Shown one piece after another: positions 1 to 4,416 of a stretch of DNA of 4,416 nt (position 1 is its first letter; every line of letters starts with the position of its first letter). The translations under genes were made by a program, and so were the position numbers. Below the pieces are notes generated by a model. That model saw nothing but the letters and a program-made list of their open reading frames with translations. It searched no databases and had not been told where the DNA came from. Location: the IMG/VR virus record IMGVR_UViG_2657245112_000032, positions 1 to 4,416 of that record, one strand, 5' to 3'. This DNA comes from a virus. Its lineage: Duplodnaviria; Heunggongvirae; Uroviricota; Caudoviricetes.

Positions 1-1
1 G

Positions 2-511
2 TTTATTGGTGAAGGTGATGCATACATTCCACCTCATACAGGTCTGCCTGCAAACAGTACCGATATTGCCCCGCCAGATATTCCGGCTGGCTTCGTGGCC
101 GTTTTCAACAGTGATGAGGCATCGTGGAATCTCGTTGAAGACCATCGGGGAAAAACCGTCTATGACGTGGCTTCCGGCGACGCGTTATTTATTTCTGAAC
201 TTGGCCCATTACCGGAAAATGTCACCTGGTTATCCCCGGAAGGGGAGTTTCAGAAGTGGAACGGCACAGCCTGGGTGAAAGATGCAGAAGCAGAAAAACT
301 GTTCCGGATCCGGAAGGCGGAAGAAACAAAAAACAGCCTGATGCAGATGGCCAGTGAGCATATTGCGCCACTTCAGGATGCCGTAGATTTGGATATTGCG
401 ACGGAGGAAGAGGCATCGTTACTGACTGCATGGAAGACATATCGGGTATTGTTGAATCGTGTTGATACAACAGTAGCATCGGATGTTGAGTGGCCAGTCG
501 CCCCGCAATAA
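2..511 (+). CDS. tfa: Tail fibre assembly protein (lambda Tfa / E. coli prophage TfaE-TfaR family), 5'-truncated by the window edge
   Basis: The reading frame is open from position 2 and continues through the listed ORF 95-511 (its first codon at 95 is GTG inside the frame, not the true start). Translation [42 protein letters not shown]...[20 protein letters not shown] matches, from memory, the lambda Tfa family almost along its length. Stop TAA at 509-511. GC about 53%. The true start lies upstream of the window. Confidence 0.85.
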
Positions 512-518
512 AAGGATA

Positions 519-546
519 AAGCCATCGATAGAAATATTGATGGCTT
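519..546. terminator. Hairpin between convergent genes (tfa on plus, acetyltransferase on minus); likely intrinsic terminator, strongest in the minus direction
   Basis: Inverted repeat AAGCCATCGAT (519-529) / ATTGATGGCTT (536-546), 11 bp stem with one G-U pair and a 6-nt loop AGAAAT. On the minus-strand transcript it is followed by a U-rich tail (UAUCCUUUUAUU). It lies 8 nt downstream of the acetyltransferase stop (555-557) and 8 nt after the tfa stop. Confidence 0.5.
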
Positions 547-554
547 CATGTACT

Positions 555-1127
555 CTATTTATACAATACAACACCGCTCTTTTTTGTTATATATGTGCAG
601 TTCGATGGTATATCTTTATTTATAAAAGACATTGCACCTATTTTTACATTATCCCCAATTTTACGTGATAATCCAATGATGCAACAATTAGCTCCGATAT
701 CAACGTTATTACCAATTTTTACTCTTGAACCAGGCATGTCACCATCTACCTGTCCAATGGTAGTATTCTGTCGCAAAACCAGATTTTCACCAGCATCAAC
801 AGCAAAATGAACAACAATTCCAGTATGATGGGGAATTGTTAAACCTTTTCCAATATTTGCGCCCAATCCAATTTCGCAACCAAATCTGTTAATTATATTA
901 TTGTTTAACTTTCTGGCTGCTTTCTTATGTAATTTATTGCCATTAATATACATTTCATTAGCCAGTCTCCACCAGAAAAGGAAATTCCGATTGCGCTGCT
1001 TCTTCTCTCTTAATAGTCGCCAAACATCCATTTTTTCACGCCTGATGATTTCAGCCATCCAGTAGCTCAATAGAGCTTTTGAATTCCCGAAGATGACAAA
1101 GTGAATAGCTATTAAGTAACATAACAT
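555..1127 (-). CDS. Hexapeptide-repeat (left-handed beta-helix) acetyltransferase, CysE/WcaB/NodL-like
   Basis: Minus-strand ORF of 190 aa. The C-terminal half has consecutive hexapeptide repeats ([LIV]-G-x-x-x-x: IGLGAN, IGKGLT, IGQVDG, IGNNVD, IGANCC, IGDNVK, IGAMSF) typical of LbH acyltransferases. Start is uncertain: ATG at 1125-1127 (190 aa) or in-frame ATG at 1056-1058 (MAEIIRREK..., 167 aa); neither has a strong SD. GC about 32%, far below the flanking genes. Confidence 0.75.
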   Translation of the reverse strand: MLCYLIAIHFVIFGNSKALLSYWMAEIIRREKMDVWRLLREKKQRNRNFLFWWRLANEMYINGNKLHKKAARKLNNNIINRFGCEIGLGANIGKGLTIPHHTGIVVHFAVDAGENLVLRQNTTIGQVDGDMPGSRVKIGNNVDIGANCCIIGLSRKIGDNVKIGAMSFINKDIPSNCTYITKKSGVVLYK

Positions 1128-1595
1128 ATTGCAACTGCCTATATTTTTTGGTTTCTATGTTTATATATTGACATTATAATTAAAACAATAATCATCAGTG
1201 TGTTACTGCGTTCCTGCTAAACTAAATCAACGCACAATGTAAACACAAATGTTAATTTTAAACTGAGCGCTAAAGGGATGTCAATATTGTATTGATAATG
1301 AGTTGCAAGATTGCCAACACTTTCTATATTTTTGGATGTAATAATTTATATTTTATCTATTTAGTGTTTCTTTAGACTTATTAAGGATGTCATTATTAAT
1401 TTATGGCTTGCCATTTCTATACATATCTGTTAAAAATTTTGACTTGTTTGTTGAAAATAGATTTAATTGATTGGTTTATTTTTACATGACGCTCTTTAAT
1501 ATAGCTTCAGGTATATATAAGCACAATGCATTATTTCCAGAGGAAATTAACAAAATTGTTAGCTCTTATTTGTTGAGCTTATAGATATTAATTAA
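1128..1595. promoter_or_regulatory. Very AT-rich non-coding region (about 20-30% GC), probable promoter/regulatory region of the acetyltransferase cargo gene and possible H-NS-type silencing target
   Basis: No ORF of meaningful length on either strand and stop codons are dense; sampled 60-nt blocks give 17-32% GC. Candidate sigma70-like elements exist on both strands: minus strand TTGTTT-17-TATAAA at about 1188-1160, plus strand TTGACT (1439-1444)-17-TTTAAT (1462-1467). Such matches are expected by chance in AT-rich DNA. Confidence 0.4.
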
Positions 1596-1614
1596 GGCCC
1601 GATTCCGGGCCTTT
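1594..1614. terminator. GC-rich hairpin, candidate intrinsic terminator (possibly bidirectional)
   Basis: AAGGCCCG-ATTC-CGGGCCTT: 6 G-C pairs plus 2 A-T pairs, 4-nt loop. Followed by TTT on the plus strand and by a UUAAUUAAUAU tail in the minus direction. It sits immediately after the stop (1617-1619) of the minus-strand small ORF and at the boundary between the AT-rich region and the GC-normal operon region. Confidence 0.5.
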
Positions 1615-1616
1615 CC

Positions 1617-1853
1617 TCATTCCGGCTTTTCGGGAAACGTTACTGGAAGGATGGAGGTATCCGTGGATTCGACTTTCTGCGCATAGAGAATCCACTCGGT
1701 TAATTTTTGTTTACCCTGAACGGAAATAATGCCTAGCCGTAACTGTGAGTCCCAGAGCTGAGTTTTATCCCTGACGAGCTGTAGCAGGCTTTGCTTTTCT
1801 TTTTCCGCTTGTTGTCTTTGCATGACCGGTTGAGAAGTTACTTTGCATACCAT
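1617..1853 (-). CDS. Hypothetical small protein (78 aa), divergent from the operon; coding status uncertain
   Basis: Minus-strand ATG at 1853-1851 (MVCKVTSQPVMQRQQAEKEK...PEKPE), stop TGA at 1619-1617, hairpin directly downstream. AGGAGG (complement of 1856-1861) lies only 2 nt before this ATG, which is suboptimal. Several rare codons (AGA, AGG, CTA, CGG). The listed 165-aa ORF 1617-2114 extends antisense through the holin-like gene with an S/T/P-rich translation, so I truncate it to the first ATG after the SD. Confidence 0.4.
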   Translation of the reverse strand: MVCKVTSQPVMQRQQAEKEKQSLLQLVRDKTQLWDSQLRLGIISVQGKQKLTEWILYAQKVESTDTSILPVTFPEKPE

Positions 1854-1881
1854 TACCTCCTGACAACGTAGGAGGGAACTT

Positions 1882-2211
1882 GTGCTTGACACACAGGAAT
1901 TAGCTCCAGTTGCTATTGCGCTCCTGCTTTCAGTAATTGGTGGGATAGGCACGTTCCTGATGGATGTCCGAGACGGTCGCCAGTCTGGCAATTTGTTAGG
2001 ATTGGTTACGGAGATCTTTGTTGCAGTGACAGCTGGCGCGGTGGCGTACCTATTGGGGCAACACGAGGGCTGGGAGTTATCAATTACGTACTTAATGGTA
2101 ACGATAGCCAGCAATAACGGTCATGAGGTGATTTCAGGGATGAAACGAGTGAATATCGATAGCATTCTGAATGTTCTTACAAGTTTGGTGAAAAAGGGAG
2201 GCGGGAAATGA
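1882..2211 (+). CDS. Small three-transmembrane membrane protein, holin-like (class I holin topology)
   Basis: GTG start at 1882 preceded by AGGAGG (1870-1875) with a 6-nt spacer; an in-frame stop at 1861-1863 excludes a longer N-terminus. 109 aa with three hydrophobic segments (LAPVAIALLLSVIGGIGTFLM, LLGLVTEIFVAVTAGAVAYLLG, WELSITYLMVTIASN) and a charged C-terminal tail ending KKGGGK. Loose resemblance to lambda S-family holins by memory. Stop TGA at 2209-2211 overlaps the next start (ATGA). Confidence 0.7.
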   Translation: MLDTQELAPVAIALLLSVIGGIGTFLMDVRDGRQSGNLLGLVTEIFVAVTAGAVAYLLGQHEGWELSITYLMVTIASNNGHEVISGMKRVNIDSILNVLTSLVKKGGGK

Positions 2212-2651
2212 TTGGCTGGGGTGTATGCGTTCTTGCGTTAGCCTTAGCCGATCGCTATTTGCTAAAACGCAAGGACATCACGCACTTAGAACTTGGTGAT
2301 GTGGAAATTAAACCGGGTTTCATCCGGGTGCCGTTCAAATACCGGTCTAAATTCCCGTTTTTGCGCGGCGCAACGGTCAGATATTGGATCCGCGATGTTC
2401 AGAAGCCGACGACAGTGATTGAAGGCGAACAACGTTGTCTGACGTCGGCTGAACAGGGCGAAAACAGTGAATGGTTGTACATACCCACTGAATATATGGG
2501 TAAAGGAGAGCGACTGTGGCATTTCAACGTCATGGTTACGCATGGCGACTCGTTCATTAACCCGTTGTATCGGATTTTCCCTGTTACTCAGCAAATCCGC
2601 AGAAGTTACGTAATAAATCTCGCACAGGATGTGTCAGATGACGAAAAATAA
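2208..2651 (+). CDS. Hypothetical protein with N-terminal signal peptide or membrane anchor (147 aa); candidate holin partner (antiholin-like) or periplasmic component
   Basis: ATG at 2208 overlaps the upstream stop by 4 nt (ATGA). GGGAGG at 2196-2201 with a 6-nt spacer. N-terminus MIGWGVCVLALALA followed by DRYLLKRKD (hydrophobic h-region, possible AxA cleavage site). No recognisable lysozyme catalytic motif. Stop TAA at 2649-2651. Confidence 0.65.
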   Translation: MIGWGVCVLALALADRYLLKRKDITHLELGDVEIKPGFIRVPFKYRSKFPFLRGATVRYWIRDVQKPTTVIEGEQRCLTSAEQGENSEWLYIPTEYMGKGERLWHFNVMVTHGDSFINPLYRIFPVTQQIRRSYVINLAQDVSDDEK

Positions 2652-3240
2652 GTATGCAACGGTCGATTTTGACCAGGTTAATGAAAAGGGGCTGAAATCC
2701 CTTATCGCGGCGATCAATAAAACCGGGGTTACGGTAATTGAGGTTGACTCCAGCAACCGCGCAACAACGAAAGATGGCGTTAAAGTTAAAACCGCAAAGC
2801 TGGTTCTTAACGACGGACAAATTCTTGCCATACAGGTAAACGATACTGGCGATATATCGTCTGTGAAACTGAATGGAAAAGCTATTCCTAACGCTCAGTC
2901 GCCGGATATCAAGACGCTTGGTACCGTCATGGGACAGGCGGCTCGCAAAAACTCCGCAAAATTCCAGAAATCACTGATCGCCAAAGCGAAGCGTGTTGCC
3001 AATCCGGTAGACAAGAAACCGGCAGTTAAATCCAACTTTCAGCGCCTGCAAGAGGCAAAACAGCGGAATGCTCAGGTGGTTGCCGCTTATAAATCAGCTC
3101 AGAACTCGGTGTCTTTCAATCAACAGCAGATCACTGATTTGCGGGGGAAGCTGGATAAGGAGACAGGCCGACTCAATAACGAAAAGGCCCGAAATGGCGA
3201 ACTCAAACGCCGTCTTAAGCAACTGAAAGCAGGAAATTAA
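2638..3240 (+). CDS. Hypothetical protein (200 aa) with a C-terminal coiled-coil/basic region; paralog of the downstream gene
   Basis: Preferred start is ATG 2638 (AGGA at 2626-2629, 8-nt spacer), overlapping the upstream gene by 14 nt; the listed ORF start at 2629 is in the same frame. The C-terminal about 80 aa are K/R/Q/E-rich with heptad-like spacing (QRLQEAKQRNAQVVAAYKSAQ...LKRRLKQLKAGN). The central domain is homologous to a domain in the next gene. Stop TAA at 3238-3240. Confidence 0.7.
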   Translation: MTKNKYATVDFDQVNEKGLKSLIAAINKTGVTVIEVDSSNRATTKDGVKVKTAKLVLNDGQILAIQVNDTGDISSVKLNGKAIPNAQSPDIKTLGTVMGQAARKNSAKFQKSLIAKAKRVANPVDKKPAVKSNFQRLQEAKQRNAQVVAAYKSAQNSVSFNQQQITDLRGKLDKETGRLNNEKARNGELKRRLKQLKAGN

Positions 3241-3241
3241 C

Positions 3242-4243
3242 ATGGAACAGTTCAATATCAATAAAGGGGTGACGATCAAGCCTGGGCTTGACGTGCTTCC
3301 CCCGCCAGTGACTGATGATGAATATCGCGCATTAATGGCCGGTGAGGACCGCTATCTGATGACGGAATCCAACACCCTGGAGGAAATCGAGGCTACGTTC
3401 TTCTATGACACGCCGATCCACTGGTGTGCTACGGATTTACTGGAGGCGATTAGTTCTACTCGTTTGCAGTTACACCGGACCATGCAGGCATTTGTCCGGG
3501 CATTGAACCAGAAGCTGAATGGTACCGGAATCTCTGCGGGGAGTGATAAAACGGGCGATGTGGCCCAGAGCGGCGCGCGCGCGATCGGCGGCGCTGAAAT
3601 TGGTCGGGCACGTAACGTTAACGGGCTGCCGGTCCTGCCAGCCATTATTCCGCTCAGTGATGGTCAGACTATCAGCATTCTGTTTCATAGCCCGACAGCG
3701 GAAAACCGGATCACCAATAGCGATACGCTGGTTGCTTTCCAGTTCTTACTGAATAAAAAAGACGTTACTCACACCGTTGCTCCGATGAGTGGACGTGATA
3801 TGACGCTGGCGCAGGTCACCATGAAACTTGCCAACCTTGCAGAGAAAAACTCGGCAAAATTCCAGCGTGCGCAGAAGAAGAAAAAAGCCCTTGTTGATGA
3901 AATAACCCAACTACAGGCTGACAGTGACCAGAAAGAGGATGCCATGAGCGACCTCGCGGATCAGGTGGCAGCGGTAGAAGGGCAGAAGGCAGATCTGGAG
4001 CAGAAAATTAACGCTGTTGCATCGGAAGCGGATTCTCTTTATGAAGAGAATGAGCGTTTGCAGACGGAGATTGATCAGCTCAATCGCACTGGTGGGCGCG
4101 ATACCATTGCTCCTGCGGGGATGACTGGTGGGTACTCTCGCGCGCTGACGGATCGCCTTGCCAGTATCAAAAATCGTATGCATATGAACGGGGAAGTGAC
4201 GCTCAGTACTGAGAGATCCCCTCATAATTTCCCCAAAGCGTAA
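3242..4243 (+). CDS. Hypothetical protein (333 aa) with a domain paralogous to the upstream gene, followed by an acidic coiled-coil
   Basis: ATG at 3242 lies 1 nt after the upstream stop; AGGA at 3231-3234 with a 7-nt spacer. Contains a Gly/Ala-rich segment (GTGISAGSDKTGDVAQSGARAIGGAEIGRAR), a domain alignable with the upstream protein (LSDGQTISILF...DMTLAQVTMKLANLAEKNSAKFQ), and a long predicted coiled-coil (ALVDEITQLQADSDQKEDAMSDLADQVAAVEGQKADLEQKINAVASEADSLYEENERLQTEIDQL). Stop TAA at 4241-4243. Confidence 0.75.
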   Translation: MEQFNINKGVTIKPGLDVLPPPVTDDEYRALMAGEDRYLMTESNTLEEIEATFFYDTPIHWCATDLLEAISSTRLQLHRTMQAFVRALNQKLNGTGISAGSDKTGDVAQSGARAIGGAEIGRARNVNGLPVLPAIIPLSDGQTISILFHSPTAENRITNSDTLVAFQFLLNKKDVTHTVAPMSGRDMTLAQVTMKLANLAEKNSAKFQRAQKKKKALVDEITQLQADSDQKEDAMSDLADQVAAVEGQKADLEQKINAVASEADSLYEENERLQTEIDQLNRTGGRDTIAPAGMTGGYSRALTDRLASIKNRMHMNGEVTLSTERSPHNFPKA

Positions 4244-4416
4244 CCATGTGTGAATAAATTTTGAGCTAGTAGGGTTGCAGCCACGAGTAAGTCTTCCCTT
4301 GTTATTGTGTAGCCAGAATGCCGCAAAACTTCCATGCCTAAGCGAACTGTTGAGAGTACGTTTCGATTTCTGACTGTGTTAGCCTGGAAGTGCTTGTCCC
4401 AACCTTGTTTCTGAGC

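Follow-up and report, generated by a model that had tools for sequence, protein, structure and literature searches.

The gene name hdf stands for 'homolog of DarA fragment'. In phage P1 (AF234172) and in Escherichia phage vB_EcoM-Ro157c2YLVW (NC_050153) the deposited annotation places hdf and darA next to lydA and lydB on the 5' side and ddrA and ddrB on the 3' side. The paralogy of Hdf and DarA is already known from annotation, from the Pfam family PF18788 and from a 2017 domain survey of polyvalent proteins, in which DarA-N is described as the N-terminal domain of DarA and as the sole domain of Hdf, and in which an as yet unknown counter-restriction activity is suggested for it (Iyer et al. 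2017, PMC5512222). The heterodimer of the two proteins is also known, having been solved by cryo-EM in 2025-26; the P1 entries PDB 9UKM and 9VZ0 contain both chains, H and I (Zheng et al. 2026, PMC12810830). According to that report, 55 DarA-Hdf pairs line the inner capsid surface at the penton-hexon junctions, where the pair forms a parallel helix bundle with complementary electrostatics and touches the packaged DNA. Besides its DarA_N domain, full DarA has a pro-region at the N terminus, an acidic helix, a domain that binds the penton and a C-terminal domain. The same DarA-Hdf pairing was reported in an independent preprint, tied to the large (T=13) versus the small (T=7) capsid (10.1101/2025.11.26.689930). 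[quoted passage not shown] CpmA and CpmB of SaPI1 resemble DarA-Hdf in being internal accessory proteins that change capsid size via the scaffolding network, an analogy drawn in PMC12810830, but show no sequence or fold relationship to them; small capsids are promoted by CpmA/CpmB, which do not stay in the capsid, and large ones by DarA-Hdf, which remain bound.

The window, that is, the whole stretch of DNA analysed here, comprises positions 1 to 4,416 (4,416 nucleotides) of the IMG/VR virus record IMGVR_UViG_2657245112_000032. Positions 1-4211 are collinear with Ro157c2YLVW at 98% identity, and positions 1822-4211 are 98.5-99.4% identical to lydA-lydB-hdf-darA of P1, P7, SJ46, RCS47 and phi456 (megablast against phage records). 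On these matches the source of the window is a P1-like phage (Punavirus), of which the lydA-lydB-hdf-darA region, 97-99% identical to that of P1, is covered. Genes 3 and 4 of an earlier sequence-only reading are hdf and darA, respectively, by the deposited annotation of P1 and Ro157c2YLVW (Table 1). The gene order lydA-lydB-hdf-darA is shared with P1, and hdf lies between lydB and darA, as expected of P1 Hdf. At the nucleotide level, P1 is 97% identical to the window in hdf and 98.7% identical in the first 966 nt of darA; the identities to P1 and Ro157c2YLVW range over 97-98% for hdf and 98.7-99.1% for darA. On the 5' side of lydA the window carries a tail-fibre assembly gene and an acetyltransferase gene, whereas P1 has cin, the C-segment and lydC. 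Ro157c2YLVW shares tfa, the acetyltransferase gene and a U' remnant with the window, but its darA is intact, whereas that of the window is interrupted. The genes lydA and lydB (1882..2651, + strand) are upstream members of the same late operon as hdf-darA.

Table 1. Features of the lydA-lydB-hdf-darA region in the window (positions are those of the window).
Feature	Position	Strand	Basis
lydA, holin	1882-2211	+	Pfam PF16083/PF16084 for the lydA-lydB pair; P1 annotation
lydB, holin antagonist	2208-2651	+	Pfam PF16083/PF16084 for the lydA-lydB pair; P1 annotation
hdf, head-internal protein, 203 aa (200 aa if the start is ATG 2638)	2629..3240	+	P1/Ro157c2YLVW identity, Pfam, PHROG
DarA_N signature motif in hdf, KNSAKFQ, AAAAACTCCGCAAAATTCCAG	2947..2967	+	Hdf residues 107-113 (203-aa numbering)
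Hdf alpha-helix domain, residues 135-203, net +9, partner of the DarA helix	3031..3237	+	Charge count; AlphaFold2 model; cryo-EM, in contact with the DarA helix (PMC12810830)
darA, first 322 codons only	3242..4208	+	P1/Ro157c2YLVW identity; PF18788; AlphaFold2 secondary structure
DarA_N signature motif in darA, KNSAKFQ, AAAAACTCGGCAAAATTCCAG	3845..3865	+	DarA residues 202-208
DarA alpha-helix domain, residues 215-283, net -12, partner of the Hdf helix	3884..4090	+	Charge; AlphaFold2; PMC12810830; 10.1101/2025.11.26.689930
IS10/ISVsa5-type (IS4 family) insertion sequence, terminal part, interrupting darA	4209..4416		Loss of darA collinearity; plasmid matches

In Hdf the DarA_N domain is followed by a basic linker and then by a long helix, likewise basic. 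The protein matches PF18788 (DarA_N) at residues 13-109 with 77.3 bits (E=1.1e-21), above the gathering threshold of 27 bits, and matches PHROG 1620, 'Hdf-like antirestriction', over its full length (residues 4-203, E=5.8e-80). It is identical to PDB 9UKM chain H at 198 of 200 residues. DarA, as encoded here, begins with an N-terminal pro-region (residues ~1-69). The DarA_N domain (66-204) comes next, then a long helix of acidic character (205-282), and the product reaches into the first part of the penton-binding domain. Its match to PF18788 covers residues 66-204 (146.4 bits, E=4.5e-43, the same threshold being exceeded), and it also matches PHROG 1926 (E=1.4e-203). The N-terminal domain, long helix and penton-binding region of this product are orthologous to those of P1 DarA, which is chain I of PDB 9UKM.

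The two genes had been read from their sequence as the products of an ancient tandem duplication, and BLASTP, Pfam, hhalign and Foldseek bear this out, both proteins containing a DarA_N domain and a homologous long helix. BLASTP aligned Hdf and DarA at 31% identity over 90 aa (E=3e-4), and the alignment includes the peptide pairs of the first reading, for example LNDGQILAIQV/LSDGQTISILF. Profiles built from 20 Hdf homologs and 25 DarA homologs were matched by hhalign with a probability of 97.6% (E=4e-12) over 148 columns, and since the match extends over Hdf 40-200 and DarA 121-285, the long helix is homologous as well as the globular domain. The homology of the two proteins is thus far above what chance would give. 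The range proposed earlier (roughly residues 20-125 of gene 3 and 80-215 of gene 4) is alignable but too short, as the alignment runs on through the long helices. The AlphaFold2 models have a mean pLDDT of 85 for Hdf and 72 for DarA, the latter reaching about 85-93 across residues 121-280, and each is predicted to contain helices and a beta-sheet of four to five strands. When the Hdf model was compared with the PDB by Foldseek, significant matches were limited to the experimental structures of DarA, 9VZ0_I and 9UKM_I (E about 7e-6, probability 1.00). The Asp (LxDGQ) and the Asn-x-basic motif (LNGK/LNKK) described for the family are present in both Hdf and DarA.

The long helices are of opposite charge, as had been read from the sequence. 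Residues 135-203 of Hdf include 15 basic and 6 acidic residues, and residues 215-283 of DarA include 6 basic and 18 acidic ones, giving net charges of +9 and -12. P1 has the same basic Hdf helix and acidic DarA helix; the helices of the window are near-identical to those of the solved 9UKM chains and complementary in charge. The earlier suggestion that the two proteins form a heterodimer through oppositely charged coiled coils is correct and was already demonstrated, because the P1 cryo-EM structures (9UKM/9VZ0; PMC12810830) contain DarA-Hdf pairs. For comparison, paired hdf/darA DNA was taken from five diverged contig lineages (L004-L008) and from Cronobacter phage JK004, whose two genes are annotated merely as hypothetical proteins. 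The order lydA-lydB-hdf-darA is retained in four of the five contig lineages; in L008 a resolvase gene lies directly upstream of hdf instead of lydB. The net charges of the Hdf and DarA helices are +9/-13 in JK004 and +9/-11 in L004, are weaker in L005 (+1/-6) and L006 (+3/-7), and show no complementarity in the Xenorhabdus-type locus L007 (-1/+1).

Translation and direct comparison confirm that KNSAKFQ is encoded in both genes by 21-mers that are identical at 20 of 21 positions. The single difference lies in the Ser codon (TCC versus TCG). The flanks are diverged, as had also been claimed, with 5/21 and 7/21 identities on either side of the 21-mer, which is the chance level. P1 has the identical KNSAKFQ patch and the same 20/21 pattern. 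The observation of a shared patch in hdf and darA is therefore correct, but it is an ordinary one and matters little as a discovery. When the window was searched for the 21-mer with up to 3 mismatches, these two copies were the only matches, where none were expected (200 shuffles). Near-identical 21-mers in the same orientation, 898 nt apart and without expected matches in the shuffles, could represent a repeated cis site for protein or RNA binding, or a translational signal, that happens to fall in both genes. This is scarcely credible, as each copy is read in frame and the two occupy homologous sites of their proteins, the nucleotide similarity vanishes in related phages that retain both genes and their order, synonymous variation of the darA copy occurs within the P1 clade, and the window holds no third copy at up to 3 mismatches. 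A repeated element at the nucleotide level was rejected on the basis of the pattern search of the window and the comparative data.

The conservation of the motif was followed in 63 Hdf homologs and 59 DarA homologs. In the DarA homologs the patch reads EKNSAKFQR, EKNTAKFQR, EKNSTKFQR, ERNSEKFQR or ERNSGKFQR, and homologs that are only 22-27% identical (e.g. that of Methylomonas) still read LAEKNSAAF[QAV]RAN. N203 is invariant among them, and E201 and F207 are conserved in at least 90%. The Hdf orthologs outside P1 read NNSVKFR, NNAVKFR, NNSQKFI, SNSLKFQ, RNTAKFS, GNSQKFT, RNSKKFT, QAAPAFA or AAAPAFA, with the Phe alone nearly invariant, and among the 63 Hdf homologs the exact KNSAKFQ is confined to a cluster at least 95% identical to P1. 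Because the Hdf orthologs outside P1 let the patch drift, the exact match between the two proteins is specific to the P1 lineage. A joint alignment of the Hdf and DarA domains has six invariant columns, namely D and Q of xDGQ, a second D, the L and N of LNxK, and the motif Phe. A profile made from this alignment found 1,059 representatives at E<=0.001 (exhaustive library), many of them in proteins of more than 1,000 aa. In 148 domain matches drawn from the best representatives of this search, the motif reads L (95%), A (82%), E (80%), K/R (96%), N (100%), S (93%), x, A/K (86%), F (98%), Q (50%) and R (68%). No other stretch is as well conserved as L-A-E-[KR]-N-S-x-x-F, either in the DarA lineage or in the DarA_N family at large.

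KNSAKFQ is thus the local spelling of the DarA_N signature L-A-E-[KR]-N-S-x-x-F, since the DarA homologs and the 148 matches share it. DarA matches the signature in full (LAEKNSAKF); in Hdf (AARKNSAKF) K, N, S and F are matched, but L, A and E are not. The PF18788 family has in common with Hdf and DarA the conserved Asp, the Asn-x-basic motif and the LAE[KR]NSxxF helix motif. Many of its members form part of multidomain proteins of great length (51 of the top 143 have at least 1,000 aa), whereas Hdf is a stand-alone short form, in most orthologs of which this C-terminal motif is relaxed. The strong constraint that the sequence-only reading ascribed to the patch holds for the DarA lineage and the wider family (N 100%, F 98%, S 93%) and not for the Hdf orthologs. 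Likewise, its conservation across homologs is found on the DarA side; on the Hdf side it is mostly limited to the Phe. To what was known, this adds in a modest way that KNSAKFQ is the local form of a family-wide motif, LAE[KR]NSxxF, placed where the long helix joins the DarA_N domain and relaxed in the Hdf branch.

The codons of the patch were compared in P1, Ro157c2YLVW, JK004 and L004-L008. Within one genome the hdf and darA copies agree at 20/21 positions in the window and in P1, and at 19/21 in Ro157c2YLVW, where darA alone has a synonymous change that makes the Phe codon TTT. The agreement is 13/21 in JK004 and L008, 12/21 in L006, 10/21 in L004, 7/21 in L005 and 3/21 in L007. If KNSAKFQ were encoded twice independently at the codon frequencies of the P1 dar operon, the two 21-mers would agree at 20 or more positions with a probability of 0.020. 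Identical residues have identical codons in 6/7 cases in the patch and in 15/40 cases elsewhere in the paralog alignment (Fisher p=0.024); this excess is mild, at a chance level of ~2%, and concerns a patch picked after the fact.

Gene conversion had been proposed as an alternative source of the identity. In such a micro conversion a darA tract of ~21 nt would have been copied into hdf, or the reverse, in the P1 lineage, homogenising the patch. The codon-identity excess would agree with this, as would the 20/21 identity in P1 and the window against at most 13/21 in JK004 and L004-L008, the restriction of exact KNSAKFQ in Hdf to the P1 cluster, and the second Lys codon, which is AAA in P1 hdf, matching darA, and AAG in the hdf of JK004, L004 and L008. 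However, the flanks of the patch are at chance identity, so that there is no homology to initiate recombination, and a tract of ~21 nt would be below the usual minimal pairing length for RecA-type recombination. The AAC and GCA states of P1 hdf also occur in L004 hdf and may be ancestral. Between P1 and JK004 the hdf patch has 7/21 differing sites, which is about the gene-wide rate, changes in one copy are not shared by the other within the P1 clade, as is evident from the darA-only change in Ro157c2YLVW, and the supporting p-value of ~0.02 is post hoc. Gene conversion is considered very unlikely, because the identity drops to 3-13/21 elsewhere and to 19/21 in the closest relative, and because the flanks are at chance. 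An equally low probability is assigned to the reading that a conversion or template switch, very short and not dependent on homology, rewrote the P1-lineage Hdf patch with darA as its source; if this were true, the partners of a heterodimer could exchange micro-segments of a shared hinge motif. The main explanation of the 20/21 identity is coincidence on top of protein-level constraint. A further modest addition is that the nucleotide identity of the patch is a lineage-specific coincidence and does not constitute evidence of recombination.

In the predicted models KNSAKFQ appears to sit where the globular DarA_N domain meets the long helix. The DarA model has the last helix of the domain at residues 189-202 and the long helix at 205-282, the sole break being N203-S204. 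The Hdf model places the motif within a single uninterrupted helix (91-121, 200-aa numbering), and a loop, PVDKKPAVKS, separates this helix from the long helix at 133-199. The AlphaFold2 secondary structure suggests that Asn-Ser may cap or kink the chain at the transition from the last domain helix to the long helix, and the models suggest that the invariant Phe may anchor the first turn of the long helix back onto the domain core. Purifying selection on this hinge between domain and coiled coil would preserve the patch. A hinge role would account for strong selection in DarA, whose long helix follows on directly, and for weaker selection in Hdf, which has the extra linker. In the Hdf lineage the hinge constraint would have been relaxed, the Phe excepted, and P1 Hdf would have retained or re-acquired the DarA-like form of the patch. 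The 20/21 identity would reflect the retention of mostly two-fold degenerate codons together with coincidence, with no recombination involved. The hinge role may apply to DarA only, because the motif of the Hdf model lies in an unbroken helix. It is considered highly probable that hdf and darA are old P1-like tandem paralogs, that the patch is a selected hinge signature and that its 20/21 identity stems from codon retention and coincidence.

The constraint on the patch had earlier been attributed to a protein interaction or a catalytic motif. The motif would then be an intermolecular interface (Hdf/DarA, capsid or DNA) or an active site, rather than an intramolecular hinge. The invariance of the Asn in the DarA branch would be consistent with this, as would the basic flanks (RK..K..K in Hdf, K..K.QR.QKKKK in DarA) and the counter-restriction activity suggested for the domain in 2017 (PMC5512222). 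Against it, in the cryo-EM report DarA and Hdf touch mainly through their helix domains, and the hexon is contacted by loop 102-116 and not by 202-208 (PMC12810830). Hdf orthologs without the Asn and Ser are still paired with DarA in a conserved gene order, and neither the Hdf nor the DarA model has a catalytic fold match. An interface or active site is considered unlikely, and the hinge signature is preferred. The examined sections of the structural report, together with a term search of it, contain no mention of residues 202-208 (PMC12810830). In Foldseek searches of the PDB, the Hdf and DarA models gave significant matches to DarA alone; the suggested catalytic motif found no support in them.

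The collinearity of darA with P1 and Ro157c2YLVW stops at position 4208. From 4209 onwards the sequence matches, at 98-99% identity, more than 1,100 plasmid records in which it is labelled 'IS4-like element ISVsa5 family transposase'. The frame of darA continues for 11 codons into the insertion sequence and ends at a stop codon at 4241-4243, so that the gene 4 product of 333 aa is made up of DarA residues 1-322 and 11 read-through residues. This 333-aa product does not represent a natural protein, since an insertion sequence has cut DarA at residue 322. It retains the DarA_N domain and the acidic helix and is without the remaining penton-binding domain and DarA_C. The rest of the penton-binding domain and DarA_C are not encoded in frame, because the IS10-type element cuts darA after codon 322. 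A Pfam scan gave no DarA_C (PF18789) match in the window protein, whereas P1 DarA matches at residues 411-472; a complete DarA of 639 aa with DarA_C is not contained in the reading frame of the window. For annotation, the value of this finding is that darA is insertionally disrupted in this element. If the element is still a functional phage, P1 genetics, as quoted in PMC12810830, predicts mostly small heads and the loss of the whole Dar anti-restriction cargo. The same darA::IS junction was not found among the complete E. coli genomes searched. The sequence CGCTCAGTA is a putative 9-bp target duplication of the insertion sequence in darA.

The Phe codon of the KNSAKFQ motif in darA is TTC in the window and TTT in the closest relative, Escherichia phage vB_EcoM-Ro157c2YLVW (6844-6864 of locus L002), and because of this replacement the hdf and darA copies of the patch are identical at 19 of 21 nucleotides in that phage. 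The two copies therefore drift synonymously, and independently of each other, within the P1 clade. The pattern of a basic Hdf and an acidic DarA long helix is weaker in distant lineages, with net charges (Hdf/DarA) of +1/-6 in locus L005 and +3/-7 in L006, and is absent from the Xenorhabdus plasmid locus L007 (-1/+1), where DarA is only 388 aa long; electrostatic pairing of Hdf with DarA may thus not be universal across the family. The DarA_N domain itself is widespread: a search among representatives of 50% clusters recovered 1,059 that carry it, and two of the top matches (within proteins P0123-P0265) each contain two matched stretches.

Two candidate starts of hdf were identified, ATG 2629 (203 aa, the form used by GenBank P1 and PDB 9UKM) and ATG 2638 (200 aa, used by RefSeq and most database homologs); from either one, hdf overlaps the end of lydB (stop 2649-2651). 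The darA ATG (3242) lies 1 nt past the hdf stop (3238-3240), which suggests that hdf and darA are translationally coupled. In several database Hdf entries (proteins P0020, P0044 and P0038) the P1-type gene is frameshifted or chimeric, and its C-terminal half is read out of frame; this suggests that some P1-like plasmid prophages carry an hdf pseudogene or were misassembled.

Features of the window and of the diverged hdf/darA loci
Feature	Position	Strand	Remark
Tail-fibre assembly gene	95-511	+	
Hexapeptide-repeat acetyltransferase	555-1127	-	within low-GC stretch
Remnant of U'	about 1617-1853	-	
End of IS10/ISVsa5-type (IS4 family) element	from 4209 (region 4200-4416)		interrupts darA
hdf of L005, L006, L007	about 4001-4630		darA downstream of hdf

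The darA gene is broken past codon 322, where the IS sequence begins CTGAGAGATCCCC. The 9 bp preceding the junction are CGCTCAGTA, a sequence similar to the target preference of IS10. None of the complete E. coli genomes in the searched collection carries this darA::IS junction. Upstream of lydA, the window carries the tail-fibre assembly gene, the acetyltransferase and the U' remnant where cin, the invertible C segment and lydC are found in P1; the layout of vB_EcoM-Ro157c2YLVW is the same as that of window positions 1-1853. This region looks like an acquired moron. GC content is 28-38% over positions 401-1600, compared with about 48-53% elsewhere.
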